Shown here in pieces: positions 36,164-51,239 of a stretch of 56,279 bases of DNA (positions within the stretch are counted from its first letter, which is position 1; every line of letters starts with the position of its first letter). The notes under the pieces were generated by a model. That model was not told the origin of the DNA and did not search any database. It saw only the letters and a list, made by a program, of their open reading frames with translations. Made by a program: the position numbers and the translations under genes. This DNA is from Gemmatimonadota bacterium (GTDB lineage: Bacteria > Gemmatimonadota > Gemmatimonadetes > Gemmatimonadales > GWC2-71-9). The DNA is taken from positions 1 to 56,279 of the forward strand of contig JAHECN010000003.1 in the NCBI GenBank assembly GCA_024641735.1. The letters are read 5' to 3'.

Positions 36164-37159
36164 TCAGGTGAGTACGGTCACCTGAGCCGAGCGAGCCAAG
36201 TGACGGACCATCTGCTCCGCCGCGAGTTGATCCATTCCGAAGGAAGCCGTGGCCGCCGCATCCGCGTCGATACACCGATCGGTCTGCACGGTCACGCTGT
36301 GCCACGGTCCCGTCCGCGGGACCGCCGTGGCCGGATCCATCAAGTGATGGAACCGCCGCCCCTGCCAGTCAAAGAACTGGGCATAGTCGCCTGACGTGGC
36401 CACCGCCTGATCGGAGACTTCCAACGTCAGCGCGACGGTCTCTTCCGTGTGGGGGGAGCGAATGCCGACACGCCAGGGTTCGCCGTCGGGCGCATGCCCG
36501 AGGGCGTAGAGATCGCCGCCGACATTGACGATCGCGTGCGCCACCCCACGGTCGCGCAGACGCTGCACCGCAACGTCCACCCCGTATCCCTTGGCGATGC
36601 CACCGAGATCGAGTCGCACATCGCGCTCGGTGAACCGGACCATGTTGCCGCGACTGGTGGGCGCCACATCGACATGACGCCAGAAGCCGCGCCCCGCGAG
36701 TGGGCGCACTAGCGCCTCGGCCGGTGGCGCATGGTGGTGCGCGACATCCCAAAGCTCTACTACCGAACCGATCCCCGGGTCGAACCGTCCGTCGGTGGCC
36801 TCGGCCCACCGCAACGCAGTGGCGATCACGCTCGCCGTGGCCGCCGAGATCGGCACACCATCACGTGCAGCAGCTGCGTTGGCCCGGCCAATGTCGGAGG
36901 TGGTACGGAACCGGGTCATCGACCATTCGACGCGGCGCAACGCATCCATCGCGGCGTCAAGCGCATCCTGCGCAGCACGTTCATCGTGATGGACCACGGT
37001 CAGGTCCGCGATCGTCCCCATCACGGGCATGCTGCGCCGAGCAACAACCTGATGCCGACGCAACGCGAGGGGGAGCGATGCCACGACGAAGGCACCCACG
37101 CCAAGTCCCAGAAAATGTCGACGGGTGAGCCGTCCGGTGTCGCGCCTGTCATTGGTCAT
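36164..37159 (-). CDS. apbE: FAD:protein FMN transferase, Tat-exported
   Basis: TRRHFLG Tat motif, MGT, DLGGIAKGYGVD, GGDL, ATSGDY, HHLMDP and ADAAATA motifs. Confidence 0.93.
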   Translation of the reverse strand: MTNDRRDTGRLTRRHFLGLGVGAFVVASLPLALRRHQVVARRSMPVMGTIADLTVVHHDERAAQDALDAAMDALRRVEWSMTRFRTTSDIGRANAAAARDGVPISAATASVIATALRWAEATDGRFDPGIGSVVELWDVAHHHAPPAEALVRPLAGRGFWRHVDVAPTSRGNMVRFTERDVRLDLGGIAKGYGVDVAVQRLRDRGVAHAIVNVGGDLYALGHAPDGEPWRVGIRSPHTEETVALTLEVSDQAVATSGDYAQFFDWQGRRFHHLMDPATAVPRTGPWHSVTVQTDRCIDADAAATASFGMDQLAAEQMVRHLARSAQVTVLT

Positions 37160-37295
37160 CGTGATGCTCCCCCGTGTAGTGCGAACAACTGTTGCTGCAT
37201 CCCCCGCAGTGGCCGCCGCATCCTCGTTGTCGGACCAGCCCAAAGAGCGCGAAGAGCAGCGCCGTCGTCCCGATCGCCAGAATGGTCGACATCAT
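37149..37295 (-). CDS. 48-aa membrane peptide with four Cys (NqrM-like / FeoB-associated Cys-rich type)
   Basis: MMSTILAIGTTALLFALFGLVRQRGCGGHCGGCSNSCSHYTGEHHDDQ; ATGA overlap with the rnfA stop; fills the rnfA-apbE gap exactly. Confidence 0.75.
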   Translation of the reverse strand: MMSTILAIGTTALLFALFGLVRQRGCGGHCGGCSNSCSHYTGEHHDDQ

Positions 37296-37867
37296 CCCGC
37301 TCCCAGGCCGGCGAAGCCCATGAACGCCAGGGCGAGGCACGACGCGATGATCAGCGAGAGGCCGAAGCCTTGCGCGGCAGATGGAACATCCGCCAGATCG
37401 AGCCGCTCGCGGATCGATGCCATCAAGGCGAGTGCGAGCGTCAGGCCGAGGCCGGCGCCCACAGCAAACGCGAGACCCTGCCACAAGTCATAGCCACGAT
37501 TGGTCTGGAAAATGGCCAGCCCGAAGATCGCGCAGTTGGTGGTGATCAATGGCAGGTAGATGCCCAATGCCCGGAAGAGCGTCGGACTGAGCTTCTTGAT
37601 GGCCATTTCTACGATCTGGACCAGCGACGCGATCACGATGATGAACGAGATGATCCGCAAGTACGGTGCGTTGGCGAGAATGAACCGATTGAGGAACCAG
37701 ACCGATGTCGAGGTGATGACCATCACGAAGACATTCGCCGTACCGAGTCGGAGCGCAGTCTCCGTCTTGCTCGTGACCCCGAAGAAGGGGCAGAGCCCAA
37801 GGAATAGCGTCAACGTGAAGTTGTTGATCAGCAGCGCGGAGAGGAGAATCCAAGTCAGATCGCTCAC
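37292..37867 (-). CDS. rnfA: Rnf complex subunit A
   Basis: FLGLCPF and LGIYLPLITTNCA motifs; GTG at 37867. Confidence 0.95.
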   Translation of the reverse strand: MSDLTWILLSALLINNFTLTLFLGLCPFFGVTSKTETALRLGTANVFVMVITSTSVWFLNRFILANAPYLRIISFIIVIASLVQIVEMAIKKLSPTLFRALGIYLPLITTNCAIFGLAIFQTNRGYDLWQGLAFAVGAGLGLTLALALMASIRERLDLADVPSAAQGFGLSLIIASCLALAFMGFAGLGAG

Positions 37868-38499
37868 GCGGCACCTTCCCCGTTCGCTCGGCCCGTGGAG
37901 CGCTTGGCATGCCATCCGAGCACCAGCATCACCACGCCGAGCGTCAGAAAGCCCCCCGGCGGGAGCACCATGATCACCCACGGTTCGAATCGCGGCCCGA
38001 GAAGATCGATCCCGAGGAGGGCGCCCGTCCCGAGCAGTTCCCGCACGGCACTCAAGAGCACCAAGACCAGCGTGAATCCCGCGGCCGTCCCGAGCGCGTC
38101 CAACAGCGAACGCTTCACCGATTGGCGTGACGCGAACGCCTCAGCGCGGCCAAGAATGATGCAGTTCACCACGATGAGGGCCACAAACGGGCCAAGCTGC
38201 TTGTGGACGACCGGCACCGCGGCTTCCAGCAGCATGTCGGCGATCGTGACGAAGGTGGCAATGATCAGCACGTAGGAGGTGATCCGCACCTCGTGCGGAA
38301 TCCATTTCTTGAGGGAGGAGACCAGCAGGTTGGATCCCAGCAACACAAAGGCCGTGGCCATCGCCATGGCCAAGCCGTTCGCCACCGAATTGGTCACGGC
38401 CAATGTCGGGCAGAGCCCGAGCATCTGGACCACGACTGGATTCTCCCGCCACACACCGCGCAAGAAGTCGTCGAACGTTGCCGGCACTTGATCGCTCAC
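37864..38499 (-). CDS. rnfE: Rnf complex subunit E
   Basis: ENPVVVQMLGLCPTLAV, LIVVNCIILGRAEAFA and LPPGGF motifs; GTG at 38499. Confidence 0.95.
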   Translation of the reverse strand: MSDQVPATFDDFLRGVWRENPVVVQMLGLCPTLAVTNSVANGLAMAMATAFVLLGSNLLVSSLKKWIPHEVRITSYVLIIATFVTIADMLLEAAVPVVHKQLGPFVALIVVNCIILGRAEAFASRQSVKRSLLDALGTAAGFTLVLVLLSAVRELLGTGALLGIDLLGPRFEPWVIMVLPPGGFLTLGVVMLVLGWHAKRSTGRANGEGAA

Positions 38500-39161
38500 G
38501 GGGTCCCTCCCCGCAGGTACGCCTGCAGGAGCGGCTGCCATCGGCTCGTGGCGTTGTTGATGATGTTCACCACGGTGCGCGACGAAATGGTGGCGCCGGT
38601 GATGGTCTGCAGGTCGTTCGGTGTACTTGGGGCACTCTTCACACCGCGCAACGGAGTCGCCGGGCCGTCGAAGCGCGAGGTGAATGGCGTCTTCTCGATC
38701 TTGTCGCCGAGGCCCGGTGTTTCCTTGTGCGCGAGGACCTTCATGCCCAGCAATGTGCCGCGGGTCGGTTCGAGGCCGAAGATGAGGCTGATCACGTCGG
38801 AGAACCCTGGTTCTCCAGCGGTGACTGCGGCGCCGATCACGCTGTCCGAGGCCGTGTAGCCGAGGAAGACGCGCTCCAACTGACGCCGATCGGCTCCTGC
38901 CGACGGCGTCTTGGTGAGCACACCACCTTCCAAGTAGAGCGTGTCCCATCGTGCGGGCGCCTTCAGAACTTCGCGTACCGCACTTTCGACCAGTTCCGCG
39001 CGATGCGCCTCAATGCGTGGCAACGTCGCGCTGTACACCGTCACGATCAGTCCACCGGCGAGCGCGCCCGCAAATCCGAGCGTCGCCAACAGCCGCCAAG
39101 ACGGGACGGCGGGTGCGGGTTCCATCTCGGGAGGTGCGCCGTGCGCGTGACCTGCACTCAT
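38496..39161 (-). CDS. rnfG: Rnf complex subunit G (FMN-binding)
   Basis: N-terminal TM, HKETPGLG and the ITGATISS flavinylation motif. Confidence 0.93.
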   Translation of the reverse strand: MSAGHAHGAPPEMEPAPAVPSWRLLATLGFAGALAGGLIVTVYSATLPRIEAHRAELVESAVREVLKAPARWDTLYLEGGVLTKTPSAGADRRQLERVFLGYTASDSVIGAAVTAGEPGFSDVISLIFGLEPTRGTLLGMKVLAHKETPGLGDKIEKTPFTSRFDGPATPLRGVKSAPSTPNDLQTITGATISSRTVVNIINNATSRWQPLLQAYLRGGTP

Positions 39162-40150
39162 CCGGGCACCCTCCGGCGCGTCCCGAAGACGCGCGGTTGG
39201 GTCATTCGGTTGATGAAGGGCACCAGTGCATTCATCAAGAGGATCGCATACATCACGCCTTCCGGGAGTCCGCCCCAGAGTCGGATCACCACGACAAGTA
39301 CACCGATCCCGGCACCGAAGATCCATCGTCCCGTGTTGGTGACTGGTGAGGTCACCATGTCCGTTGCCATGTAGACCGCGCCGAGCATCAGGCCACCGGA
39401 GAAGAGCATGAACCAGGCGTCAGGATGCGTCGGGTCGACCGTGTGCATCACGGTGGCGAGGAGGGCGGTGCTCAACAGGACACTCACCGGAATGCGCCAG
39501 TTGAGATAGCCGCGCCACGCCAGGTACGCTCCACCCGCAAGGATGACCAACGCCGCCGTTTCGCCGAGCGAGCCACCGGTGGTGCCGAGGATCAATTCCC
39601 GGAGTGGGGTGAGGGTGCCCTCAAATTTGTGCAGCCCCAGCGGGGTTGCCTCGGTGAGCGCGTCCGTCTGGGCGCTGGTGAATGGGAACGCGAAGGTGTC
39701 GCCGCGGAGGGTCCAGAAACTCTGACCGGCTGCGGGCCATGTCGTGATGGCAACCGGGAAGGCCGCCTGCAAGAAGGCCCGCCCGATCAATGCCGGGTTG
39801 AAGACATTCTGCCCGAGGCCGCCAAAGACCAGTTTGCCGAAGCCGACGCCGAAGATCCCGCCCAGCACGGCCATCCAGAGTGGCAGCCCCGCCGGTAGGC
39901 AGAGCCCGAGGAGGATGCCCGTGATCACCGCAGAACCGTCGCCGAGGGTGTCGCCCCGCCCGAAGCCGCGTTCCGTCACCAGGGCACCGATCGTGGTGGC
40001 CGCAATGACCAGCAGGGCGCTGATGCCGAAACTGAAGCCCGCGACGGCGATCACCGGGAGCAGGCTCAGCACGACATGCCACATGATCCGCGGGGTGGAG
40101 TCGCGATCCTTGAGGTGCGGCGAGGCCGTGACGACGAGTGGAGTACTCAT
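39158..40150 (-). CDS. rnfD: Rnf complex subunit D
   Basis: SPH, GGLGQNVFNPALIG, TEATPL (FMN threonine), ATDMVTSP and PEGVMYAILLMN motifs. Confidence 0.95.
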   Translation of the reverse strand: MSTPLVVTASPHLKDRDSTPRIMWHVVLSLLPVIAVAGFSFGISALLVIAATTIGALVTERGFGRGDTLGDGSAVITGILLGLCLPAGLPLWMAVLGGIFGVGFGKLVFGGLGQNVFNPALIGRAFLQAAFPVAITTWPAAGQSFWTLRGDTFAFPFTSAQTDALTEATPLGLHKFEGTLTPLRELILGTTGGSLGETAALVILAGGAYLAWRGYLNWRIPVSVLLSTALLATVMHTVDPTHPDAWFMLFSGGLMLGAVYMATDMVTSPVTNTGRWIFGAGIGVLVVVIRLWGGLPEGVMYAILLMNALVPFINRMTQPRVFGTRRRVPG

Positions 40151-41475
40151 GGGGCGCTCGCCTGTGCGCGGCGCAATCCGGCCTTGCTGACCTGGAAGAG
40201 CTGCGACAACGGGATATTGGAAGGACAGACATAGGAGCAGGATCCGCAGAGCATGCAATCCGAAAGATGGGCGTCGGTCATCTCGTCATAGCGGCCGACC
40301 CGCGCGAGGTCTCCGAGGAGTGACGGGTTCAGGAAGACCGGGCAGGCATCGAGGCAGCGGCCGCAATGGATGCACGGATACACACGTTCCGTGCGCGTTT
40401 CCTGGCGGGCGAGGACCACGATGCCGGTGGTGCCCTTGGTGATCGGGGCGTCGAGGTTGGCCTGGGCGAGGCCCATCATCGGGCCACCGGCAATCACTTG
40501 GGCCGCATCGGCCGTGAGGCCGCCGCACTGATCAAGCAGGTCACGCAGCTTGGTGCCAACCGGCACGATCAGGTTGGCCGGACGGGTCAGCCCATGTCCC
40601 GTGACGGTGACGATCCGCTCAATCAGGGGAAGCCCGGTCTCGAACACTTCCGCAATTGCCGCGGCCGATCCGACATTCTGTACGACCACGCCAGCAGAGA
40701 CCGGAAGTTTTCCGGACGCGACCTCGTGGCCCGTCACCGCGTGGATCAGCATCTTCTCTGCGCCCTGCGGATACTTGACCGTGAGCGGCAGGATCGTGAT
40801 GTCGAGATCGGTCGGGATGGTCCGGGTCAGGGCCTCGATGGCGTCAGGCTTGTTCCGCTCTACGCCGATCACCGCTTTGGAAACGCCGAGCGTCTGCATC
40901 ATCACGCGAATGCCGAAATGCACCCGCTTGGGGTATTCCGCCATCGTGCGGTGATCGGAGGTGAGGTACGGCTCGCATTCCGCCCCATTGATGATCAGCG
41001 TATGGATCGGAAAATCCTTGGGTGGCGCCAGTTTGACGTGGGTCGGGAAGCCGGCCCCACCGAGGCCAACGACGCCGGCATCTTGCACCGCCTGGACCAC
41101 CTCATCCACCGAGAGGCCTTCCCAGTGCGGAACCATCCGGGGGCGCGGGATCTGTGGTGCATAGGGGTCCACGAGAATCCGGACCGCCATTGCCATCGTG
41201 CCATCAGGATGCGGCCACCAGTCGACGTCCACGACCTTGCCGGCGGCGGAGGAGTGAATCGGCACGGAGATGTAGCCGTCGGCCTCTCCCACCTTGTCGC
41301 CGCGCTCGACCCGGTCGCCCACCTTGACGCAGAGTGTCGCCGGCTTCCCGGCGTGTTGCCGGAGCGGGAGGACGATCTCCTTGGGGTACGCCATCCGCCG
41401 GATCGGAAGCTGTGCCGTCAGCTCCTTCGATTCCGGCGGATGCACGCCGTGCGCGAACCCGGAAGTGAACCACAT
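40147..41475 (-). CDS. rnfC: Rnf complex subunit C
   Basis: GVHP, GLGGAGFPTHVK, NGAECEPYLTSD, YPQGAEK, GGPMMG and two CxxCxxCxxxCP motifs. Confidence 0.96.
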   Translation of the reverse strand: MWFTSGFAHGVHPPESKELTAQLPIRRMAYPKEIVLPLRQHAGKPATLCVKVGDRVERGDKVGEADGYISVPIHSSAAGKVVDVDWWPHPDGTMAMAVRILVDPYAPQIPRPRMVPHWEGLSVDEVVQAVQDAGVVGLGGAGFPTHVKLAPPKDFPIHTLIINGAECEPYLTSDHRTMAEYPKRVHFGIRVMMQTLGVSKAVIGVERNKPDAIEALTRTIPTDLDITILPLTVKYPQGAEKMLIHAVTGHEVASGKLPVSAGVVVQNVGSAAAIAEVFETGLPLIERIVTVTGHGLTRPANLIVPVGTKLRDLLDQCGGLTADAAQVIAGGPMMGLAQANLDAPITKGTTGIVVLARQETRTERVYPCIHCGRCLDACPVFLNPSLLGDLARVGRYDEMTDAHLSDCMLCGSCSYVCPSNIPLSQLFQVSKAGLRRAQASAP

Positions 41476-44400
41476 CAGTTGAACTTCTCCGCCCGCGCGA
41501 CCCACTTTGCCAGGTCCTTCTCCTTCGGATTCAACGGCGTGCCGGGATGGATCAGCGCCACCGGGCAGCGTTCTGCCGCCAGCACCAACTGCTGGAAGGT
41601 GCCGGCCGTTGCATCCTTGATGTAGGCCTGCTTCACGTCGTTGTAGGCGAACATCCGGCTGTTGAGGTTGGTGCACTCGTTGCACGTGGTGCAGTTGGCG
41701 GAATCGATGTACGCCTCAAGGGTGAGGGGTGCGTCGTCCCCGGCCTCAGGCGCAACCGGAGCGGCCGTCGGTGTGGCAACGGGAGCCGATGCCGCCGGTT
41801 CTGGGGCGCTGGGTGGTGTGGCGGCCACGGGTGTCGGAGCAACTGCAGCCTCTGCTATGCCGTGGCCATTGCCAGAGGATGCCGTGGCCGCCGAGGCCGG
41901 CAATGTTGCCAGGAGGTCGGCGATCACGGCACCACCGCCTTGCTTCATCAATCCTTCGACGAGTCGCTTGGCGATTTCCCGTGGATAGTTGGCGCGCATC
42001 GCTGCGAGTGACGCATCGAACTCGGCGCGCAACGTGGCCTCGCGCTGGGCGTACGCGGTGTCCAGATCTCGTGCGACGAGATCGCGAACACTCTCCGACA
42101 CTTCGACGCCCGCGAGCTGCCGCAACTGCGACCAGTACTCGAGTCGCTCCTGCGCCAGAGTTGCCATCGCTGGTGCCACACGCATCCGGCGCAACCGGCG
42201 TTCCCGGGTCACCCCATGAATGAATGCCACCTTCCCCTCACGTTCGTCGAACGGGATGGTGATGTACTCATGGAATGGCACCATCGCATCGTCCCACTGT
42301 TCGGGCGGTACTTCCGTGAAGTGCTGCTTGAATCGCGTCTCAGTGGCCGCCCAATCCGCGATGGTCAGCGGTAACGTCATGGTCTGTTCGGCGCCGTCTT
42401 CGTCGACATACGCGAGGGAGTACTCGGGCCAATCGGTGTCGACTGACGGGTTGCCATCCAGGCTCATGCAGTCGGCGAAGGACGGGCCCCCATCGGGGTC
42501 ATAGCTGAAGAACGGGAAGGCCCGGCTCTCCAACGAGAGGCGCGCCGCGTGCTGTGCCCAGTCGTCGGCGAGGCCGTGCTCCACCGGGCATGGCGTGTAG
42601 ATGTTGAAGATCGCCGGGCGCCGCTTCTGAAGGCCCTTGAGCACGCCGCTGAGCAGGTGGGACGCCGCTGCCTGCGAGGATTGGTGGACGAAGACCCCGC
42701 GGTGTGCGATCGCCAGCAGGCCGAGTTCCTTGCGCACTTCGGTCTTGCCGGACTGCGCCTTGCCGAAGGCCGACATGTCGGCGACCTGTCCCGTGAACCC
42801 GCTGGTGCACGCCTGTCCACCGGTATTGGAATAGACCTGTGTGTCGAGGACGACGACCCGGATCGGCTTTCCGGAGGCGAGGAGTCGTGAGAGGTTCTGG
42901 AAGCCGATGTCGAGCATCGCCCCGTCGCCGCCCATCGCGACAATCGGAGGGCAGAGATGGAATTCGTCATCCGTGAGCTGCTGCCAATCGAGGCGATTGA
43001 GCTCCGGTTCCATCGTGGCCGCGTCATAGCTCCCCTCGGCCAACGCGCGTGCGCGCCGAATGGCGATGAAGCCGTCGGTCATCTTCCGCATGTGCGCTTC
43101 GAAGAGGCCGATCGCGATCGATGGCGAATCCTGGAAGAGGTGGTTCACCCATGGGAAGGGGTACGGGTTGTACGGGTACGTGCTTCCCCAGACGGAGGAA
43201 CAGCCCGTCGAGTTGGCCATACCCAGCGACGCGCGTCCCTTGCCACTCGGTCCCTTGACGTAACGCCACTGCAGGTCCGTGATGGCGCGAAGCGATTCGT
43301 TGAGCAGTGCCAGTTCGGCGCGCTTGGCGTCCGCCATCGGGACTGCGACGGAATCTTTCGAGGCCTCCGCCGCAGCCAGGTCCACACCTGAGGCCACCAG
43401 CGCGCGGGCCTTGGCGTCGAGTGTGGCAATCAGGTCGTCGAGTTCACGAACCTGCGCGGCGACGCGCGGGGCCATCATCGCGTGAATCGCCGACACAATC
43501 AGGTGGACGGTCGTCTTCTCACCGCACCCCATGCAGGCGCCGTCGCCGCCGACCATCGAGCGGTAGGTCTCCTTCTTGAGCAACATCGAGGAGAGAACGC
43601 CAATCCCCTCGCTCATGTCGGCAATGTTGATGAATCGATCATTGGTGTCCGGAAGGTGCTGCCAGACGGCCCAGTTGCGACGCAGTTCCGCGAGGTTGGC
43701 GTCGTCCTGCTTGACGGTGATCAGCGCACCATCCGGGCAGACCTCCACACAGAGGTTGCATCCTTTGCACGCTTCCGGATTGACCGTGATCGACAGCAGG
43801 CCACCACCACCCTTGGACTTCGACTCGTGGGTGTCGAAGAAGGGCCGGGTCCGTGCCAGCGGGAACTCGGCCAATTGGCTCTGAATCACGGCGTGTTCCA
43901 CATCCGTGGCGGCACGACGCTCTGCGTCCCACGACATCTTGGCGGCCACCGCCTGATATCCCTGCGCGAAGGCGTCGGAGACGCTCAGGCTGGAATCCTT
44001 GCCGAGGAGGGTGTGGGTTTCACGCGCCCAGTGCTTGACGATCGGTCGCACCTTCCCGAACGTTGCGCCGTTCGTGGTGCTCCGAATCACCGCGTCGATG
44101 ACTTCTTCGGCGCTGTTCACGACGCCGGGGATCGCCGAGTCGGGACACTGGACCCAGCACTGCGAGCAGCCGGTGCACTTGTCGGCGATGAACGCCGGGA
44201 CCTCAAGGCGCACACCGCTCATGTCTCGCACGCTGCTGGTCACCGCGGGAATGGCGCTGATCGCAGCAAAGGGGTCGGCGATCCCGTCCTCGCCGAGGGT
44301 GCACATGGAGCAGACCTGCTCCCAAAAACGCCCCTCATGCCCGATGCCCTCAGCGGCATCATTGGCGGACATCAGGACCGGCATCTGGGGGACTTCCCCG

Positions 44401-46529
44401 CGCTCGTCGGGGATCTCCGTGCTGGACCCGATCACTTCGTGGAGCTCGTCGTAGCCGCGACGGATGACGCGCAGGTTGTCCTGGACCACCTGGTCGCCAC
44501 GATGCCCGAACTTCTTGGTGAGCTGCTTGGTAATGCCCTTGAAGAGCGCTTCTTCCGACACGCCTTCCTTTTCGCGCAGCGGTGAGGTGCGGAAGAAGGC
44601 GCCCATGAAGGCGGCACCCTGCATCCGGTACCGCAGCTCAGCGTCCGAGGCCTCGCTCATCGCGATCGCGAACGCGTCCAGCACATAGAGGCGGATCTTG
44701 CGATCGATGATCGTGCGGCGCGCCTTGGCCGGCAGCGTCTGCCAGAATTCGTCCGGCGGAAGATCGGACTGGATGACAAAGACGCCATGGTCCGCGAGCC
44801 CGGCGAGCGGGTCACTGTGCCGGAACACATTGGGGTCGGGCGACAGCACGACATCCACGTACTTGAGCTCACAGTTGAGCCGAAGCGGTTCGTGCGCGAG
44901 CACGGCGTAGAAGGTCGTCGGCTGCCCCTTCTTCTCGGAGCCGTACTTCGGATTGGCCTTCACCTGGAGGCCGAAGAGCTCGAACGCCGTCATCGCAACA
45001 TTCTTGCCCATGGTGATGGCACCCCAGCCACCGACCGAATGGATGCGCAGCGCGGTTGAACTTGCCGGAAGCATGTTGACCGGTGCCGCCGGTGTGAGCG
45101 ACAGCTCCGTCAGATGCGGGTAATGATCCACCAACTCTTCTTGCCAGATCTGGAGCTTCGGTGCCCGGGTCGCCTGACGGACGAAGTCGATGCCGAGATA
45201 GAACTGCCGCTGACGTCCGCCGTCCGGCAGCATGTTCTCGACGGCAGCGACGATGTCCCCCGGCTGCAAGTCACGACTGCCAAGGCCGAAGCAACCGCTG
45301 AAGAAGTCGGGCACCTGTTCCGGTCGGAGCGGGCGAACGCCAGCGTGGGCATCCGGAGAGCGGGAATTCTCCACGCCCTGTGCCATCGCCGCGCGAATCT
45401 CCCGAAGCAACGGCGCGTCCACGGCGAGCGGTTGATCGACGCGCTCCAACACGGTGACGCCCTTCTTGCCGGCAAGGAGCGCCGTGAGGACGTCCGCCGG
45501 GAAGGGGCGGAACATGGTCAGGTGGACGACGCCGACTTTCAGCCCGCGAGTCGCCCGGAGATGGTCGGCCACGACTTCCGCGTTGGAGCAGACCGACCCC
45601 TGGCCGAGGATGACATACTCGGCGTCATCGAGGCGATACCCCATCGCTCGGGCGTAGCGCCGACCGGTCAACGCGGCGTACTCTGCAAAGGCGCGTTCCG
45701 ACAGCTCACGAATGTGATCGAAGTAGAAAGGCCGTTGCGCCGCCACGCCCTGTGCGTAGCTGTCCTGATTCTGCACCGTCCCCAGCATGGCCGGGTAGTC
45801 GAGGTCAAACATCTCCGGGATCCGCCGACGCGTGGCACCGAACACCATGCGTTGGGCGGGAGTCGGGGAGTCGATCAGGTCGCTCGGATCCCCGAGGTAC
45901 TCCTTGATCAAGGCAGGCTCGGGAAGGCGCAGCGACTCGATGACGTGACTGGTGAGAAAGCCATCCTGGGCCACCAGCCCGGGATTCAGCGACAACTCAG
46001 CGATGCGGTGTGCGATCAACGTGAGATCCGCGGTCTCCTGCACATCCTTGGCAAAGAGCTGGAAGAATCCGGTATCGTCGACGGCGTGATAGTCATCGTG
46101 CCCGGCGTGCACGTTCAGCGCGTGCTTGGTCATGGCGCGCGCGGCGACGTTGAGCACGTAGGTCAGGCGCTTGCCGACCGCCGCGTAGAGCGACTCGTGC
46201 ATGTACGCGATACCCTGACCGCTCGAGAAGTTGGTCGAACGGAGCCCTGCCATGCTCATGCCCGCGGTGACCGCGGCGGCAGCATGTTCGCCTTCCGGCT
46301 CGAAGAAGAGCAGGCGTCGGCCGAACACGTTTGGGGTGCCCTCGGCGACAGCCGCCGCCCATCCCTCACCCATCTGCGTGGATGGCGTGATCGGATAGGC
46401 GCCGGCGGCTTCGCTGGCGCCGGTCTCCATCGCGACGACCGCGGAACTGCCGTCGAGCGCCACCAGTTTGCCGGGGTACTTCACGGTGGCCGCCTGGGGG
46501 ACCGCGGCTTCCTTCGTCTTGAAAAACAT
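41475..46529 (-). CDS. single-chain pyruvate/2-oxoacid:ferredoxin oxidoreductase (NifJ-like, 1684 aa) with C-terminal tethered ferredoxin
   Basis: YPITP, FRPFP, GLGSRD, CTGCSQCWVQCP, CKGCNLCVEVCP, GACMGCGE, TGCSSVWG, GGDG and VYSNTGGQ motifs; tail CTTCNEC...CP; ATG at 46529. Confidence 0.92.
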   Translation of the reverse strand: MFFKTKEAAVPQAATVKYPGKLVALDGSSAVVAMETGASEAAGAYPITPSTQMGEGWAAAVAEGTPNVFGRRLLFFEPEGEHAAAAVTAGMSMAGLRSTNFSSGQGIAYMHESLYAAVGKRLTYVLNVAARAMTKHALNVHAGHDDYHAVDDTGFFQLFAKDVQETADLTLIAHRIAELSLNPGLVAQDGFLTSHVIESLRLPEPALIKEYLGDPSDLIDSPTPAQRMVFGATRRRIPEMFDLDYPAMLGTVQNQDSYAQGVAAQRPFYFDHIRELSERAFAEYAALTGRRYARAMGYRLDDAEYVILGQGSVCSNAEVVADHLRATRGLKVGVVHLTMFRPFPADVLTALLAGKKGVTVLERVDQPLAVDAPLLREIRAAMAQGVENSRSPDAHAGVRPLRPEQVPDFFSGCFGLGSRDLQPGDIVAAVENMLPDGGRQRQFYLGIDFVRQATRAPKLQIWQEELVDHYPHLTELSLTPAAPVNMLPASSTALRIHSVGGWGAITMGKNVAMTAFELFGLQVKANPKYGSEKKGQPTTFYAVLAHEPLRLNCELKYVDVVLSPDPNVFRHSDPLAGLADHGVFVIQSDLPPDEFWQTLPAKARRTIIDRKIRLYVLDAFAIAMSEASDAELRYRMQGAAFMGAFFRTSPLREKEGVSEEALFKGITKQLTKKFGHRGDQVVQDNLRVIRRGYDELHEVIGSSTEIPDERGEVPQMPVLMSANDAAEGIGHEGRFWEQVCSMCTLGEDGIADPFAAISAIPAVTSSVRDMSGVRLEVPAFIADKCTGCSQCWVQCPDSAIPGVVNSAEEVIDAVIRSTTNGATFGKVRPIVKHWARETHTLLGKDSSLSVSDAFAQGYQAVAAKMSWDAERRAATDVEHAVIQSQLAEFPLARTRPFFDTHESKSKGGGGLLSITVNPEACKGCNLCVEVCPDGALITVKQDDANLAELRRNWAVWQHLPDTNDRFINIADMSEGIGVLSSMLLKKETYRSMVGGDGACMGCGEKTTVHLIVSAIHAMMAPRVAAQVRELDDLIATLDAKARALVASGVDLAAAEASKDSVAVPMADAKRAELALLNESLRAITDLQWRYVKGPSGKGRASLGMANSTGCSSVWGSTYPYNPYPFPWVNHLFQDSPSIAIGLFEAHMRKMTDGFIAIRRARALAEGSYDAATMEPELNRLDWQQLTDDEFHLCPPIVAMGGDGAMLDIGFQNLSRLLASGKPIRVVVLDTQVYSNTGGQACTSGFTGQVADMSAFGKAQSGKTEVRKELGLLAIAHRGVFVHQSSQAAASHLLSGVLKGLQKRRPAIFNIYTPCPVEHGLADDWAQHAARLSLESRAFPFFSYDPDGGPSFADCMSLDGNPSVDTDWPEYSLAYVDEDGAEQTMTLPLTIADWAATETRFKQHFTEVPPEQWDDAMVPFHEYITIPFDEREGKVAFIHGVTRERRLRRMRVAPAMATLAQERLEYWSQLRQLAGVEVSESVRDLVARDLDTAYAQREATLRAEFDASLAAMRANYPREIAKRLVEGLMKQGGGAVIADLLATLPASAATASSGNGHGIAEAAVAPTPVAATPPSAPEPAASAPVATPTAAPVAPEAGDDAPLTLEAYIDSANCTTCNECTNLNSRMFAYNDVKQAYIKDATAGTFQQLVLAAERCPVALIHPGTPLNPKEKDLAKWVARAEKFN

Positions 46530-47359
46530 TATGCTGCCTCCGAGACCGGTGCACGGGTGAACTGTGCGCCGGAGAGCCAAACGATTGCGTTGGTTGGACA
46601 TCGGGCGACGGCGCGGGCATCCGCGAGCGCCGCCAGTTCCTGATTCACGACTGCCACTCCGCTGGCGATGCTGATCAATCCCGGCTCCGCGTCCTGCACG
46701 CACTTGCCGCATGCGGTGCACGCGACCTCGCACTGGGAGAGGATGTCGTCACCGACCATCAGGTTCTTGCACTGCACCAGGAGTGGCTGATCGACGGGGA
46801 GAATGGTGAACAACGTCTTGGGGCATGCCTCCACGCAGTCGCCGCACGCGGTACAGGCCACGGGGTCGACAACCGGGATGCCGTGGGCATTCATGTGGAT
46901 CGCGCCGAAGTCGCAACTGCGCTCGCAGTCGGCGAGACCGAGGCAGCCCCAGGTGCAGCCCTTGCCGCCCCCAGCGACCGCGGCGGCGGCTCCACAGGTC
47001 GCCACGCCACGGTATTCCGCGCGTTGGATCGCCACGTCGGTGCCGCCGGCACAGAGCAGGCGGGCCACCCGTTTCACGGCGACGCCGGCGTCCACCCCGA
47101 GGTAGCCCGCGATCTGGTCGCGCGAGGCCTCGGTGGCCACCGAACATTGGGAGACTTGGATGGTCCCTGCGACTGCCGCCTCCGCGAACGAACGACAGCC
47201 GGGGAGGCCGCATGCACCGCAGTTCGCGCCGGGAAGAATCGACGTGACGACGCCGATGCGGGGGTCCTCCCACACGGTGAGATTGGCGTTGGCGAGTGCG
47301 ATCAGGATGCCGAACGCCAGCCCTACACCACCAAGAATCAGGATCGCGTCGAGCACCAT
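46529..47359 (-). CDS. rnfB: Rnf complex subunit B
   Basis: N-terminal TM, LPGANCGACGLPGC, CLGLADCERSC and CTACGDCVEACP motifs; ATG at 47359. Confidence 0.93.
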   Translation of the reverse strand: MVLDAILILGGVGLAFGILIALANANLTVWEDPRIGVVTSILPGANCGACGLPGCRSFAEAAVAGTIQVSQCSVATEASRDQIAGYLGVDAGVAVKRVARLLCAGGTDVAIQRAEYRGVATCGAAAAVAGGGKGCTWGCLGLADCERSCDFGAIHMNAHGIPVVDPVACTACGDCVEACPKTLFTILPVDQPLLVQCKNLMVGDDILSQCEVACTACGKCVQDAEPGLISIASGVAVVNQELAALADARAVARCPTNAIVWLSGAQFTRAPVSEAA

Positions 47360-47381: not shown

Positions 47382-48386
47382 TCAGGCGCCGTCCTGAAGC
47401 CCGGTCTGGCCGAGCAACCACTGCGTGACGCGATCGACGGCGTCCTCTGCCCCGATCGCAGGTGTGCCCGTACCGTCGCGTGCCGGGACCGAGAACGGGG
47501 TCCGCGCGAGATCGGTGAGCAGTCGAACATCCTCTGCCATCTGCCACACGCTGATGCCGTCGATCGGCGCCTTGGGTGCCACGGCGTTCGTGCCAATCGA
47601 CAGACGCTGCCACCCTTCGGCGCCGCCACGCGGATCGTGGGTGAAAGTCGTGCACCCTTCCGGCACCATCGCCACGATCGCGGGTCCGTCGAAGGAGGCC
47701 ACCTGATCCAATCCGGCGCCGTCGACGGTCTGCATCACGAAGGTCCCCGGCGTGATGCACCGGGCGAGCGGGGCGGGCGCACAGGGCCCGCTGACGACCA
47801 ACACCAGCTTGGCGCGACCATCGGCGAAGTCGGTGAGGGCACCAGAGTGGAGATCCGCCCCACGCAGGACGATCACGAGCGGCGGGGCAAAGCGTCGTTC
47901 CGCGCGATTCCAGGTGCGGAACTCCGCTGGATCCAGCAGCCGATCGTGGGTCGCGGCGTCGTAGCGTCCGGCGCGAATCAATTCCGCCAACACGATCGCG
48001 CCAAACGCCTGTCCCGCACGCGCCAGTGCCGCGTCGATCGTGGCACCGAGTTTCCGCCCTTCGGTGACTTCGGTGACAAAGAGGTCCGAGGCCTCGCCGT
48101 TGACTGCCTCCAGCGTCTGCACGGCACGATCGAGCATCGCGAGCGATGCCGGATCGCCGGATCCGAGCGGCGGAAAGAGTGTGGCGAAGCGCCCGGCATC
48201 GATGCGACCCGTCGCGAACTCGCCCAGCTCAAACGCCGCACGCGATGCGCGAATGGCGGGGCTGGCATGGTGTGCGTCAAGGAAGCCACTCGCCTGCGTG
48301 AGTGCGCCCTCCACAGCCGCACGAAACTCGGCAATCGGTTGGGCCAGCGCGTCGAGCGCGACGGCGACCCGAGGATCAGACAGCAT
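47382..48386 (-). CDS. hypothetical protein; degenerate paralog of the PFOR TPP-binding (beta) domain
   Basis: ATG at 48386 overlaps korB; shares YDAAT, PP(L/I)V, FVxQ, PAI and DPxGG blocks with the adjacent PFOR but lacks GDG. Confidence 0.8.
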   Translation of the reverse strand: MLSDPRVAVALDALAQPIAEFRAAVEGALTQASGFLDAHHASPAIRASRAAFELGEFATGRIDAGRFATLFPPLGSGDPASLAMLDRAVQTLEAVNGEASDLFVTEVTEGRKLGATIDAALARAGQAFGAIVLAELIRAGRYDAATHDRLLDPAEFRTWNRAERRFAPPLVIVLRGADLHSGALTDFADGRAKLVLVVSGPCAPAPLARCITPGTFVMQTVDGAGLDQVASFDGPAIVAMVPEGCTTFTHDPRGGAEGWQRLSIGTNAVAPKAPIDGISVWQMAEDVRLLTDLARTPFSVPARDGTGTPAIGAEDAVDRVTQWLLGQTGLQDGA

Positions 48387-49332
48387 ACTTGTCGAACTCC
48401 TCTTCGAGGCGCGTATTGCGCTCCGTCGGCGTGCGCGGGGTGGTGCGCCGGGTTTCCTCGTATCTCGGCCGGGACGGATCGCGGAAGAAGACGCCGAGAT
48501 GAATTCGGTCGTCGGACTCTGCGTAGTGCCGCGCCGCCGCGAGATCACGGGGGTCGTGATGAATTTGAGTCTTGTAGATCTTCTCGATCTCCGGCACGAT
48601 GACGCCGTCATCGTGCACCAGCAGCGCGATCTGTGAGGGATCGCGCACAGCAGAGGCAAAGATCTCGGGTGTAAACACCGGGCAGCGCTGGAGAATCCGG
48701 ACGAAGCTGGTTCCCTTGTGCTGGTAGGCCGCCCGGAGGGTGGCATACAAGTGTGCCGGGACCCACTCCGCGGTCTGCGCCACAAACGACGCATTGGTCA
48801 CCCCGAGGGAGACCGACAACGGATTCATCGCCGGGAGGTAGCTCCCGCGGGGCTGGGTGTTGCTCACCGTGCCCTGCGGAGTCGTCGGCGACGTCTGCTT
48901 CTTGGTCAATCCGTAGATGGCGTTGTCGAGCATCATCACCGTGAGGTCGACATTGTATCGCAGCGCGTGAATCCAGTGCGCGGCGCCGATCGAGGTGCAG
49001 TCGCCATCACCCATGACCGTGAACACGCTCAGTTCCGGCCGATGCAACTTGATGCCGGTGGACACCGGCAACGCCCGGCCGTGAATGCCGTGGAAGCCAT
49101 AAGTCTTCAGATAGTGCGGGAACCGGCTGGAACAGCCGATGCCGGAGACGAAGACGGTCTGTTCCGGTACCAGTTGTTCGGCGGCGAGGAGCCGCTGCAC
49201 CGCCGTCAGGATGCCGTGGTCACCACAGCCGGCACACCACCGGGCCCGCGCGCCTTCGTAACTGTCCATCCCGTAGGGCTCGTCGCTCCCTTTCCGCTGG
49301 ATGACATGGAGCAGTTCGCAGGAGAGACTCAT
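48376..49332 (-). CDS. korB: 2-oxoacid:ferredoxin oxidoreductase beta subunit
   Basis: WCAGCGD, SGIGCSSR, HGRALP, GDGD, NAIYGLTK.Q.SP and RCP motifs. Confidence 0.93.
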   Translation of the reverse strand: MSLSCELLHVIQRKGSDEPYGMDSYEGARARWCAGCGDHGILTAVQRLLAAEQLVPEQTVFVSGIGCSSRFPHYLKTYGFHGIHGRALPVSTGIKLHRPELSVFTVMGDGDCTSIGAAHWIHALRYNVDLTVMMLDNAIYGLTKKQTSPTTPQGTVSNTQPRGSYLPAMNPLSVSLGVTNASFVAQTAEWVPAHLYATLRAAYQHKGTSFVRILQRCPVFTPEIFASAVRDPSQIALLVHDDGVIVPEIEKIYKTQIHHDPRDLAAARHYAESDDRIHLGVFFRDPSRPRYEETRRTTPRTPTERNTRLEEEFDKYAV

Positions 49333-51239
49333 GCTGCACCTCCAGAGAGCACGCGTTCGCGGATGGCGGTGACAATCGAACCAGGGCGCAGGGGCTCACC
49401 TGGCACTCGGGTCCAGCTGTCGACATCGACCAGCGTGGAGGAGCGCAGCAGCATCGCCATCTGGCCACGCCGGCGGTTCTCCTCAGTGATGTAGGGTGCG
49501 TCAGGGTCATCGGAATAGTTGATCTCGACGGCGACCACCTTGGTGAAGCGCTGCAGGATCGCCTTGATCCCAGGCTCCAATGGCGAGAGGAAGCGCAGGT
49601 GGAGTGACGAGACCTTCAACCCATCGGCCCGCACCCGATCCACGGCCTCCTCAATGGCACCCTTGGTGCTTCCCCAACCGACGACCAGCAGATCCCCGCC
49701 CTCCTCGTCGCCATAGACCACGGGTGGGGTGAGCACGCTCTGCAGCACCGCCAGCTTGCGGCTCCGCATGGCGGAGGAGTGCTGATGAATGCCGGAACTG
49801 TAGGCGACTTTGCTGCGCTCGTCGTGCGAGAGCCCGGTCAACGTGAACATGCCACCGGGTTGGCCCGGGACGATGCGCCGTGAAAGCCCGGTCTCCTCCT
49901 CCCAGGCGTACGGGAGGTCGGAGTCGCCCACGGGGGCGAGGTCGATCGGCGCAGCCTGCCACTGGGAGTCGAGCGTGGGACGCGGGTACGGCGCCACACC
50001 GGTGGCGAGATTCGCGTCGGTCAGCACCATCACCACTGCGCGGAAGGTCTCGGCGATGCGTCGCGCCGTGATCATCACGTGGAAGCACTCTTCGATCGTC
50101 GCGGGGGCGACAATCACGTGCGGTGCATCTCCCGGCTGTCCGAAGAGCGCGGCCAGCAAATCCGACTGCTCCACCTTGGTCGGGAGTCCGGTGCTCGGTC
50201 CGCCGCGTTGGACATCGACCACCACGAGTGGCGTTTCCGTCATGATCGCGAGGCCGAGGAACTCCGTCTTCAGCGCGAGCCCTGGTCCGGAGGTGATCGT
50301 GAGGGCGACTTTTCCGGCGTACGAGGCGCCAATCGCCACGCCGGCGGCTGCGATTTCGTCTTCCGCCTGGTGGACCACGCCACCGAAGCGTTCGAAGACC
50401 TCACTCAGGTAGTGCGACACCGAGGTGGCCGGGGTGATCGGGTACATCGCGCAGAGCTCGAAGCCCGCCGCGATGGCTCCCATTCCGATGGCCTCGTTGC
50501 CGTTCATCACCACCAGCGGTGTGTCGATCGGTGCAGGCGGCACATCAATCCGAAAACCGATGTGTTCCTGAGCCCACTGGTAGCCGAGATTGACGAGCGA
50601 CACGTTGGAGTCATAGACGGCTTCGCTCTTTTTGCGAAACGCGGTCGCGATTTGATCGCGGATCCGCTCCATGTCGCGGTCATAGATGTAGGCGAGCATC
50701 CCGAGTGCGAACATGTTCTTCCCCTTTCGGGGATTCTCCACCAGGGTCAGGCACTGCTCCTGCATCGGCACCGGGATAATGCGATACTCTCGCGTCGACA
50801 GCTCCTCCATCGCCGCCTCCCATGCCGCCACGATGGCGGGGTCTTGGGAGGTCGCCCACATCTCTTCGATGAGCAGGATCGCGTCCGGCGCGAGGGCGCC
50901 GACACGGTGCCGCGCCAGCAAGGCCTGTTCGTTGAAGGCCACGACCAGGTCGGTTTGGTCGCCCCAGTTGGTCACCGGACCGGCGCCGACACGAATGCGA
51001 TTGCCGCTGGCACCCTCCGGAACGCGTGGAGGTGGCTGCACTTCGGCCGGAATGATCTCGACGGTCCAGATCCCGTTTCCCATTTTGGCGGAAACGGCGG
51101 CGAAGATCTGCCCGCACTTCTGTGCGCCCTCGCCAGAATCCGAGACGATTTCGATCGTGTGTTCGCGAACGCGCAAATGTGCCGGAGGCGCCCCGGTCTG
51201 GGGGGCCACGGCACTCGTGGTTCCTGCGGAAATAGTCAC
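49329..51239 (-). CDS. korA: 2-oxoacid:ferredoxin oxidoreductase alpha subunit (gamma-alpha fusion)
   Basis: DSGEG, KNMFALG, GNEA, YPITPATS, QAEDEIAA, TSGPG, QRGGPSTGLPTK and GWGST motifs. Confidence 0.93.
   Translation of the reverse strand: MTISAGTTSAVAPQTGAPPAHLRVREHTIEIVSDSGEGAQKCGQIFAAVSAKMGNGIWTVEIIPAEVQPPPRVPEGASGNRIRVGAGPVTNWGDQTDLVVAFNEQALLARHRVGALAPDAILLIEEMWATSQDPAIVAAWEAAMEELSTREYRIIPVPMQEQCLTLVENPRKGKNMFALGMLAYIYDRDMERIRDQIATAFRKKSEAVYDSNVSLVNLGYQWAQEHIGFRIDVPPAPIDTPLVVMNGNEAIGMGAIAAGFELCAMYPITPATSVSHYLSEVFERFGGVVHQAEDEIAAAGVAIGASYAGKVALTITSGPGLALKTEFLGLAIMTETPLVVVDVQRGGPSTGLPTKVEQSDLLAALFGQPGDAPHVIVAPATIEECFHVMITARRIAETFRAVVMVLTDANLATGVAPYPRPTLDSQWQAAPIDLAPVGDSDLPYAWEEETGLSRRIVPGQPGGMFTLTGLSHDERSKVAYSSGIHQHSSAMRSRKLAVLQSVLTPPVVYGDEEGGDLLVVGWGSTKGAIEEAVDRVRADGLKVSSLHLRFLSPLEPGIKAILQRFTKVVAVEINYSDDPDAPYITEENRRRGQMAMLLRSSTLVDVDSWTRVPGEPLRPGSIVTAIRERVLSGGAA

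Follow-up and report, generated by a model that had tools for sequence, protein, structure and literature searches.

The textbook picture of anaerobic energy metabolism treats pyruvate:ferredoxin oxidoreductase (PFOR), ferredoxin and the Rnf complex as three separate, diffusing components. Ferredoxin I of Desulfovibrio africanus is a physiological partner of the PFOR of that species. Here we analyse a 56,279-nucleotide stretch of DNA from a Gemmatimonadota bacterium (contig JAHECN010000003.1 of assembly GCA_024641735.1; the whole stretch is called the window below), in which the gene of a divergent single-chain PFOR, named PFOR_Fd, lies inside an rnf operon and encodes a C-terminal ferredoxin domain on an Ala/Pro-rich linker. 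In contrast to the textbook picture, a covalent tether holds the carrier, and the genes of the components are interleaved and coupled in translation. We consider it probable, though far from certain, that the tethered ferredoxin is mobile and shuttles electrons from PFOR to Rnf. Gemmatimonadota are known mainly as aerobic heterotrophs.

Parts of this arrangement have counterparts in described systems. The homodimeric PFORs of the NifJ type (Moorella thermoacetica, 6CIN; D. africanus, 1B0P; Methanosarcina acetivorans, 7PLM) are like PFOR_Fd in domain order, thiamine pyrophosphate (TPP) motif, the two clusters of domain V and the cluster cysteines of domain VI, but PFOR_Fd is about 450-510 residues longer, with inserts and a 340-residue C-terminal extension ending in the tethered ferredoxin, and its gene sits inside the rnf operon. 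The tail shares the CxxCxxC...CP motif, the Pfam family Fer4_13 and its predicted fold with mono-cluster ferredoxins (D. africanus ferredoxin I, 1FXR/1DAX/1DFD; Pyrococcus furiosus; Thermotoga maritima, 1VJW; Bacillus thermoproteolyticus, 1IQZ), but unlike them it is fused and has an extra, almost invariant C-terminal helix of ~24 residues. The lipoyl domains of the E2 subunits of 2-oxoacid dehydrogenases ride on Ala/Pro linkers as swinging arms. PFOR_Fd likewise places a small carrier on a flexible Ala/Pro linker of a 2-oxoacid-oxidising enzyme, but its carrier is an iron-sulfur ferredoxin that would move electrons, not a lipoyl group moving acyl groups, and the two are not homologous. In the pyruvate:NADP+ oxidoreductase of Euglena and Cryptosporidium, the PFOR C-terminus is fused to a flavoprotein reductase of the cytochrome P450 reductase type; PFOR_Fd likewise has its presumed acceptor fused to the C-terminus, but here it is a ferredoxin on a tether, which would have to travel to a membrane complex distinct from the enzyme. 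As for gene order, the rnf2 cluster (rnfBCDGEA) of the Solemya velum gill symbiont has PFOR genes between rnfB2 and rnfC2, and pyruvate was suggested as the Rnf donor (Dmytrenko et al. 2014, PMC4287430). It shares the PFOR-inside-rnf order with the window but belongs to a different phylum, and the passage of that paper on the cluster is silent on a fused ferredoxin, a linker, korAB or a paralog. In Endoriftia, a 'PFOR-like' gene is listed as co-regulated with korAB (PMC11636981, the section on these genes). The tether is not described in the relevant sections of PMC6315080, PMC11636981 and PMC12174285, and a literature search, with subscription journals outside its coverage, gave no account of the tether or of the family of ~840 amino acids (aa) presented below. 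The tethered architecture is essentially undescribed in print.

The open reading frame (ORF) at 41475-46733 on the minus strand translates free of stops, with the stop codon at 41475-41477. Its likely start is the ATG at 46529 (MFFKTKEAA...), giving 1684 aa, and an identical 1684-aa protein is already on record (P0002). Its parts are the following.

41475..46529, minus strand: PFOR_Fd, divergent single-chain PFOR with tethered ferredoxin, 1684 aa plus stop (translation, Pfam, NCBIfam, alignment to Protein Data Bank (PDB) entries, P0002)
42498..46529, minus strand: catalytic core, residues 1-1344, domains I, II, III, V and VI (Pfam; PDB alignment to 6CIN/1B0P/7PLM; invariant columns)
41898..42497, minus strand: C-terminal extension, residues 1345-1544, comprising the end of domain VI, a beta-hairpin module and long helices, one of ~50 residues (AlphaFold2 predicted local distance difference test (pLDDT) 85-98 for model residues 20-190; 55% mean identity)
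41721..41897, minus strand: Ala/Pro-rich linker, residues 1545-1603, 59 aa (pLDDT <50; length range among relatives; 32.5% identity)
41478..41720, minus strand: putative single-[4Fe-4S] ferredoxin domain, residues 1604-1684, 81 aa, including the conserved C-terminal helix HPGTPLNPKEKDLAKWVARAEKFN (Fer4_13; 1DAX; 1FXR; 82% identity)

The C-terminal part runs from a helical stretch ending in ...ADLLATLP through the Ala/Pro linker LPASAATASSGNGHGIAEAAVAPTPVAATPPSAPEPAASAPVATPTAAPVAPEAG to the ferredoxin domain, whose translation contains the stretches YIDSANCTTCNECTNLNS and LAAERCPVALIHPG; the C-terminus reads LEAYIDSANCTTCNECTNLNS...LAAERCPVALIHPGTPLNPKEKDLAKWVARAEKFN. Fer4_13 matches residues 1608-1661 with 27.5 bits, and with 33.3 bits in a second search (cut-off 24.5), which together with the CxxCxxC...CP ligand set places the tail in the family of mono-cluster ferredoxins. 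Searching the PDB with the last 84 residues returned D. africanus ferredoxin I (1DAX/1DFD/1FXR) at E 3.5e-6, and more weakly the ferredoxin I of 1DWL (E 0.16). The last 340 residues of PFOR_Fd were modelled with AlphaFold2 from a 41-row alignment of loci (mean pLDDT 81). The model has confident beta-hairpins and long helices in residues ~20-200, one helix being ~50 residues long, and a ferredoxin domain at 260-340 (pLDDT 89-97); between these two confident domains, the linker segments 202-227 and 236-254 fall to pLDDT <50. The predicted tail, compared with the PDB using Foldseek, found 1FXR at the top (template modelling score, TMt, 0.84; root-mean-square deviation 0.9 A; 58 columns), followed by other mono-cluster ferredoxins. 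The tail is thus predicted to have a ferredoxin fold, and its motif and fold suggest that it binds a [4Fe-4S] cluster. These results bear out a preliminary description of the window, which had read a single-cluster ferredoxin on a long Ala/Pro linker from the DNA: the tail sequence it quoted occurs letter for letter in the translation of 41475-46733 (minus strand), the span it gave, 41475-41930, reaches from the last part of the helical segment through the linker to the ferredoxin, and a disordered linker is indeed predicted. That a separate ferredoxin gene was joined to PFOR by an artefact of gene calling is ruled out, since the frame is open across the linker and the tail is present in 48 of 48 testable loci of relatives. 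The tail is a real, conserved and functionally constrained feature.

The relatives tell which parts of this C-terminus are constrained. With residues 1480-1684 of PFOR_Fd as the query, 8000 proteins were scored and 610 of them matched at E<=1e-3. Those listed, 120 in number, are mostly 1650-1700 aa long, and the few that are named belong to Gemmatimonadota or Gemmatimonadaceae, plus one Vicinamibacteria. CxxCxxC occurs within the last 110 residues of every one of these 120, among which is the window's own protein, and the tail is therefore not a chance feature. Among the 113 relatives longer than 1600 aa, the linker, measured between the conserved LLxxLP and LEAYIDS, has 43-73 aa (median 57) and consists of 35% A, 17.5% P, 11% V and 7% T. 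By its composition, its length and the pLDDT <50 of the model, this is predicted to be a flexible Ala/Pro-rich linker joining folded domains, as in swinging arms. Averaged over 24 relatives, identity to the window is 82.2% in the ferredoxin domain, 73.5% in the core, 55.4% in the C-terminal extension and 32.5% in the linker. This pattern indicates that the carrier domain is under the strongest constraint and that the linker is held only in its length range and composition.

The same pattern bears on the idea of a static wire, in which the ferredoxin would have a permanent place on PFOR, or on a supercomplex of PFOR and RnfB, and add a fourth cluster to the intramolecular chain, with the linker as a mere spacer. 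The near invariance of the ferredoxin and of its extra C-terminal helix (86.8% mean identity in the last 24 residues, over the 24 relatives) is what one would expect of a fixed interface, and the long conserved helices ahead of the linker fit this idea too. However, a fixed domain has no need of a 43-73-aa linker that is low in complexity, variable in length, poorly conserved and predicted to be disordered, and the same tail occurs on two different scaffolds (see below). We hold a static wire to be decidedly unlikely. Prediction of a complex between residues 36-276 of RnfB (34-row alignment) and the 85 residues of the tail (41-row alignment) scored 0.00 in both runs, which says nothing either way about their binding.

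Some of the matches to the tail are of a different kind. P0150 (2733 aa, 26 matched stretches) was ruled out as a relative, being a SprB-repeat surface protein and a compositional false positive. In P0131 (1456 aa), domains of RnfC and RnfD follow the ferredoxin tail without a break, probably because the gene call read through a tightly packed junction. P0122, P0127 and P0136 are PFOR-like proteins of 1432-1585 aa, each with two stretches that match the ferredoxin tail; the alignment of P0122 shows both copies, and its TPP motif is degenerate, with IDDETS replacing GGDGAM. Finally, a short ORF in genome G059 (L089 = G059:C3, ~9829-10190 of the locus) consists only of an Ala/Pro stretch and a ferredoxin domain of the tail type, its fourth ligand being CQV instead of CPV. 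It adjoins a gene for a KdpD-like sensor kinase in a genome that also has the full operon, and may be a free-standing copy or a remnant.

Ahead of the tail, PFOR_Fd has the domain order I-II-III-V-VI on one chain, which, from Pfam and the alignment to 6CIN and 1B0P, makes it a member of the PFOR/2-oxoacid:ferredoxin oxidoreductase (OFOR) superfamily. Pfam places POR_N at 40-260, PFOR_II at 303-385, POR at 500-694 and TPP_enzyme_C at 1195-1276, with two Fer4 motifs at about 770-800 and 914-944. Domain V has two CxxCxxCxxxCP motifs, CTGCSQCWVQCP and CKGCNLCVEVCP, and domain VI has the TPP/Mg motif GGDGAMLD...YSNTGGQ and C999/C1002/C1110/C1314. In the 25 aligned relatives the TPP motif, both CxxCxxCxxxCP motifs and the domain-VI cysteines, i.e., ligand sets for three [4Fe-4S] clusters as read from sequence, are invariant. 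Among PDB entries, the homodimeric PFORs 6CIN, 1B0P and 7PLM match best (E 1e-91 to 1e-87); inserts near 802-878, 1013-1103 and 1161-1189 have no aligned counterpart in them, and the alignment ends at about residue 1346. The score against the NifJ/PFOR equivalog of NCBIfam (TIGR02176) is 418.7 bits, below its cut-off of 911.35. PFOR_Fd looks like a divergent but motif-complete member of the PFOR family, of the homodimer type and probably acting on pyruvate. Two estuary metatranscriptome libraries contain contigs of 151-323 nucleotides (nt) that match the PFOR core with 0-1 differences, among them contigs identical to 43235-43557, 43429-43579 and 44069-44219. This is a weak hint of transcription in situ; carry-over of DNA is possible. 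No contig spans the tail at high identity, but stretches that lack contigs carry no weight.

PFOR_Fd belongs to an operon with the minus-strand order korA-korB-orfX-rnfB-PFOR_Fd-rnfC-rnfD-rnfG-rnfE-rnfA-47-aa ORF-apbE, in which Pfam detects all six Rnf subunits (rnfA, B, C, D, E, G) and apbE. Its other genes are the following.

49329..51239, minus strand: korA, gamma-alpha fusion of a two-subunit OFOR (POR, POR_N, PFOR_II)
48376..49332, minus strand: korB, beta subunit of the two-subunit OFOR (TPP_enzyme_C, PFO_beta_C)
47382..48386, minus strand: orfX, 334 aa (no Pfam family; assigned by comparison with the paralog family)
46529..47359, minus strand: rnfB, 276 aa (Pfam FeS and Fer4)
40147..41475, minus strand: rnfC, 442 aa (RnfC_N, Complex1_51K, SLBB, Fer4)
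39158..40150, minus strand: rnfD (NQR2_RnfD_RnfE, E 1.7e-106)
38496..39161, minus strand: rnfG (FMN_bind, E 2.4e-14)
37864..38541, minus strand: rnfE, start approximate (Rnf-Nqr, E 5e-62)
37292..37852, minus strand: rnfA, the part matched by Pfam, start approximate (Rnf-Nqr, E 3.1e-53)
37149..37292, minus strand: Cys-rich membrane ORF of 47 aa between rnfA and apbE (weak match to FeoB_associated, 23.2 bits, below the cut-off of 27), which, as we presume from its position, may be an NqrM-like maturation factor
36164..37162, minus strand: apbE, flavin transferase, start approximate (ApbE, E 2.6e-74)

The TAA stop of rnfB overlaps the ATG of PFOR_Fd by one base (TAATG), and the TGA stop of PFOR_Fd overlaps the ATG of rnfC in the same way (TGATG). 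PFOR_Fd is translationally coupled between rnfB and rnfC.

This organisation is conserved. A scan of one genome per species gave at least 530 relatives among at least 673 pattern matches, and the best 80 yielded 64 loci, nearly all from metagenome-assembled genomes (MAGs) of Gemmatimonadota, with one labelled Vicinamibacterales and one labelled 'bacterium'. The tail was found in every locus with enough flanking sequence (48/48). Among the loci that could be tested, rnfC lies directly downstream of PFOR_Fd, within ~30 nt, in 46/46, rnfB directly upstream in 45/45, and korB ~2 kb upstream in 37/37; in 42/42 the gap of 976-1074 nt between korB and rnfB is occupied by a homolog of orfX. The link of the tail to Rnf and KorAB, which the preliminary description had drawn from one locus, is upheld by this context. 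In a subclade of Gemmatimonadota (loci L036, L043, L048, L054 and L065), apbE lies between rnfG and rnfE and not after rnfA.

We compared by eye the lists of matches in a sample of 401 Gemmatimonadota genomes that includes the genome of the window. Of these, 79 (~20%) have a match to the tail query (245 aa, E<=1e-10); they fall in 42 of 147 genera and include 5 of the 15 other genomes of the window's genus: the module is patchy and accessory in the phylum. RnfC (E<=1e-30) was matched in 90 genomes, 77 of which also have the tail, and within the class this Rnf never occurs without it. Two genomes, G136 and G301, match the tail query without RnfC. The PFOR core (first 450 residues, E<=1e-60) has matches in 83 genomes. 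The PFOR of G136 is 82% identical in the first 450 residues and 68% across the whole core, and stops within the helical segment (...ALKASFPTLTATV), with no linker, ferredoxin or nearby rnfB; its locus (L090 = G136:C1:3923000-3942000) is in a single-contig genome that is 99% complete and lacks a match to RnfC. G203, G225, G282, G287 and G301 have PFOR-like genes that are 44-47% identical, none of them tailed. Leaving out contig-edge fragments in G109 and G179, the PFOR-family genes of Rnf-less genomes lack the tail in 6/6 judged cases. The PFOR-borne tail and this Rnf thus co-occur strictly within the Gemmatimonadota sample. In G238 and G337, the PFOR tail and rnfC are broken into several frames, from either operon decay or indel errors of long reads.

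The tail is not restricted to PFOR. The 84-aa ferredoxin domain, searched against 1.84 billion representative proteins, gave 1080 matches at E<=1e-3 and 932 at E<=1e-10, and 67 of the top 150 matches are proteins of 700-899 aa. Fer4_13 is the sole Pfam family in three of these (P0159, P0154, P0170), and no NCBIfam family matched P0159 or P0154. The ferredoxin domain of P0159, including the C-terminal helix, is 69% identical to that of the window, and its 89 relatives at E<=1e-3 are labelled just 'ferredoxin' or 'hypothetical' and come from MAGs of Eisenbacteria, Thermoanaerobaculia and Myxococcota. Compared with the profile of PFOR_Fd, this ~840-aa family (about 760-880 aa) is homologous to residues 992-1684 (probability 100%, E 3e-99, 637 columns), which span domain VI and all that follows it, from the extension and the helices to the linker and the ferredoxin. 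Outside the tail, no Cys is invariant in the alignment of the family, and its consensus has no GDG at the position of the TPP motif of PFOR, for which reasons it looks non-catalytic. The family, a new finding, looks like a non-catalytic paralog of the C-terminal half of PFOR with a tail of identical type.

OrfX seems to be part of the same story. It is 40% identical over 295 aa to P0151, a tail-bearing protein of 457 aa, and its family aligns with the 840-aa family in hhalign (97% probability, E 1e-10, orfX 10-324 to P0159 198-601). Aligned directly, the orfX and PFOR families give a weak match (47% probability, E 2e-4, 70 columns), and the relationship of orfX to PFOR therefore rests on the link through the 840-aa family and on the match to P0151. 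Its TPP-motif region is degenerate (PPLVIVLRGADLHSG against PPIVAMGGDGAMLDIG in PFOR). By these comparisons, orfX is a tail-less, shortened remnant of the ~840-aa paralog family.

The loci of the paralog show how the two scaffolds alternate. From 489 relatives among 599 pattern matches, we surveyed 80 metagenome loci (L091-L170). The usual order is korA-korB-[840-aa paralog]-rnfB-[tail-less PFOR-like gene]-rnfCDGE: korB is directly upstream in 39 of the 55 testable loci, rnfB directly downstream of the tail in 46 of 68, and rnfC 3-7 kb further downstream in 18 of 26. Between rnfB and rnfC lies a PFOR-like gene of ~4.5 kb. Of six that were scanned, five have POR_N with PFOR_II or a Fer4 motif, and the sixth (L168) has Fer4 motifs only. 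This gene ends in the helical segment, and the ferredoxin-tail motif is absent from it in 19/19 loci examined. The same operon plan thus exists in other lineages, with the tail on the paralog that precedes rnfB rather than on PFOR. In two metagenome loci of a distant lineage (L161, L162), a large tailed gene stands between rnfB and rnfC, as in Gemmatimonadota.

A tailed, non-catalytic protein directly after korB raises the possibility that the tail is a general, built-in acceptor on the side of the OFORs (PFOR and above all KorAB), serving any available oxidant, of which Rnf is just the commonest. The 39 of 55 loci with this arrangement agree with it, as do the 22 of 68 testable loci, about a third, that have no rnfB after the tail, and genome G301, where a 759-aa tail-bearing paralog comes right after korA-korB and RnfC has no match. 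On the other hand, the PFOR-borne tail is confined to genomes with this Rnf in Gemmatimonadota, the gene that carries the tail abuts rnfB or rnfC at most loci, and the loci without rnfB are limited by contig ends, with Rnf possibly elsewhere in the genome. A general acceptor seems unlikely to us, if still worth serious consideration.

To return to a mobile tether that feeds Rnf, several observations weigh against it. The loci without rnfB and G301 indicate that the tail is not exclusively tied to Rnf. In family f10, of another class of the phylum, 13/13 genomes have an RnfC that is 41-45% identical and neither the tail nor a match to the PFOR core; theirs is a separate Rnf lineage. In genomes with listed coordinates for both, the tail and rnfC adjoin; the one exception is G279, with a distance of ~15 kb between them. 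The six tail-less PFORs of Rnf-less genomes are not independent events, since five belong to one genus. The TIGR02176 score below the equivalog cut-off makes the substrate of PFOR_Fd uncertain, and the cluster of the tail is assumed from motif and fold. Finally, there is the question of a soluble carrier. The preliminary description had noted the absence of a ferredoxin gene, which is true of the window but not of the genome (2.75 Mb in 245 contigs, 96% complete): contig C9 has an ORF for a free 88-aa two-cluster ferredoxin with a motif pattern of the 7Fe type (CIGVKDRACVDVCP ... CIDCGACEPECP; L070 1402-1668, plus strand). It is the only small stand-alone Fer4 ORF identified in the genome, and may act as a soluble carrier. 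The genome search found no flavodoxin or NifH, and Fer4_13 solely in the tail of PFOR_Fd.

The rest of the genome also gives the metabolic setting. It has five matches to E1_dh-type genes, i.e., E1 subunits of the pyruvate dehydrogenase/2-oxoglutarate dehydrogenase (PDH/OGDH) type, and two COX1 genes, with POR_N in korA and PFOR_Fd only; the ATP-citrate lyase marker PF16114 has no match in it, nor in control genomes, a negative that thus carries no weight. Judged by its gene content, the organism seems to be an aerobe that has the usual 2-oxoacid dehydrogenases, and the operon an extra module. An aerobic host would give some reason to see the tail as a protective or regulatory appendage that shields the clusters from O2, as the C-terminal domain VII of D. 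africanus PFOR shields its own, or senses redox state, since an O2-sensitive PFOR might need such protection. Yet the tail has an electron-carrier fold with all four ligands invariant and no similarity to that domain VII (the alignments to 1B0P and 6CIN end near residue 1346), and protection would leave the strict linkage to Rnf unexplained, so that we give this idea very little credence.

In the electron shuttle that we favour, the mobility of the tail, its partners and the direction of flow are inferred from these patterns. The tethered ferredoxin would dock at the distal cluster of domain V of PFOR; a second docking site is probably the one cluster of KorAB, its neighbour, which lacks a ferredoxin domain. 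The ferredoxin would pick up one electron, swing to the multi-cluster cytoplasmic domain of RnfB and unload there. This domain of RnfB is described as the acceptor site of ferredoxin in a 2025 review of RNF and NQR (PMC12174285, in the part on RnfB). Rnf would then reduce NAD+ and pump ions, so that the forward direction conserves the energy of 2-oxoacid oxidation. In reverse, the ion gradient and NADH would reduce the tether and provide low-potential electrons for 2-oxoacid synthesis in an aerobe. Such a module would be an alternative to PDH/OGDH that is coupled to energy conservation and brings its own ferredoxin. A wider version, which we put forward tentatively as a possibility short of an even chance, joins korAB, orfX or the 840-aa paralog, the PFOR or PFOR-like protein and Rnf in one membrane-associated, ion-translocating 2-oxoacid:NAD+ oxidoreductase or, in the other direction, in a synthase of pyruvate or 2-oxoglutarate that the ion gradient would drive in aerobes. 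The tethered ferredoxin would then be the sole carrier between two OFOR active sites and RnfB, on a scaffold that depends on the lineage, and the 840-aa family would represent a novel type of protein, a dedicated 'ferredoxin-carrier subunit' that descends from a catalytically dead half of PFOR.

Should the tether act in the way we propose, the electron flux from pyruvate or 2-oxoglutarate to NAD+ would be insulated from the pool of soluble ferredoxin and coupled to ion pumping, and its reversal could serve CO2 fixation. As a module, the operon would be compact and could be transplanted to provide coupling that is independent of ferredoxin. The docking of ferredoxin on RnfB, which the existing structures of Rnf have not yet settled, could be studied cleanly in such a system, and with the carrier sitting on a catalytic scaffold in some lineages and on a dead paralog in others, natural variants for testing are at hand.

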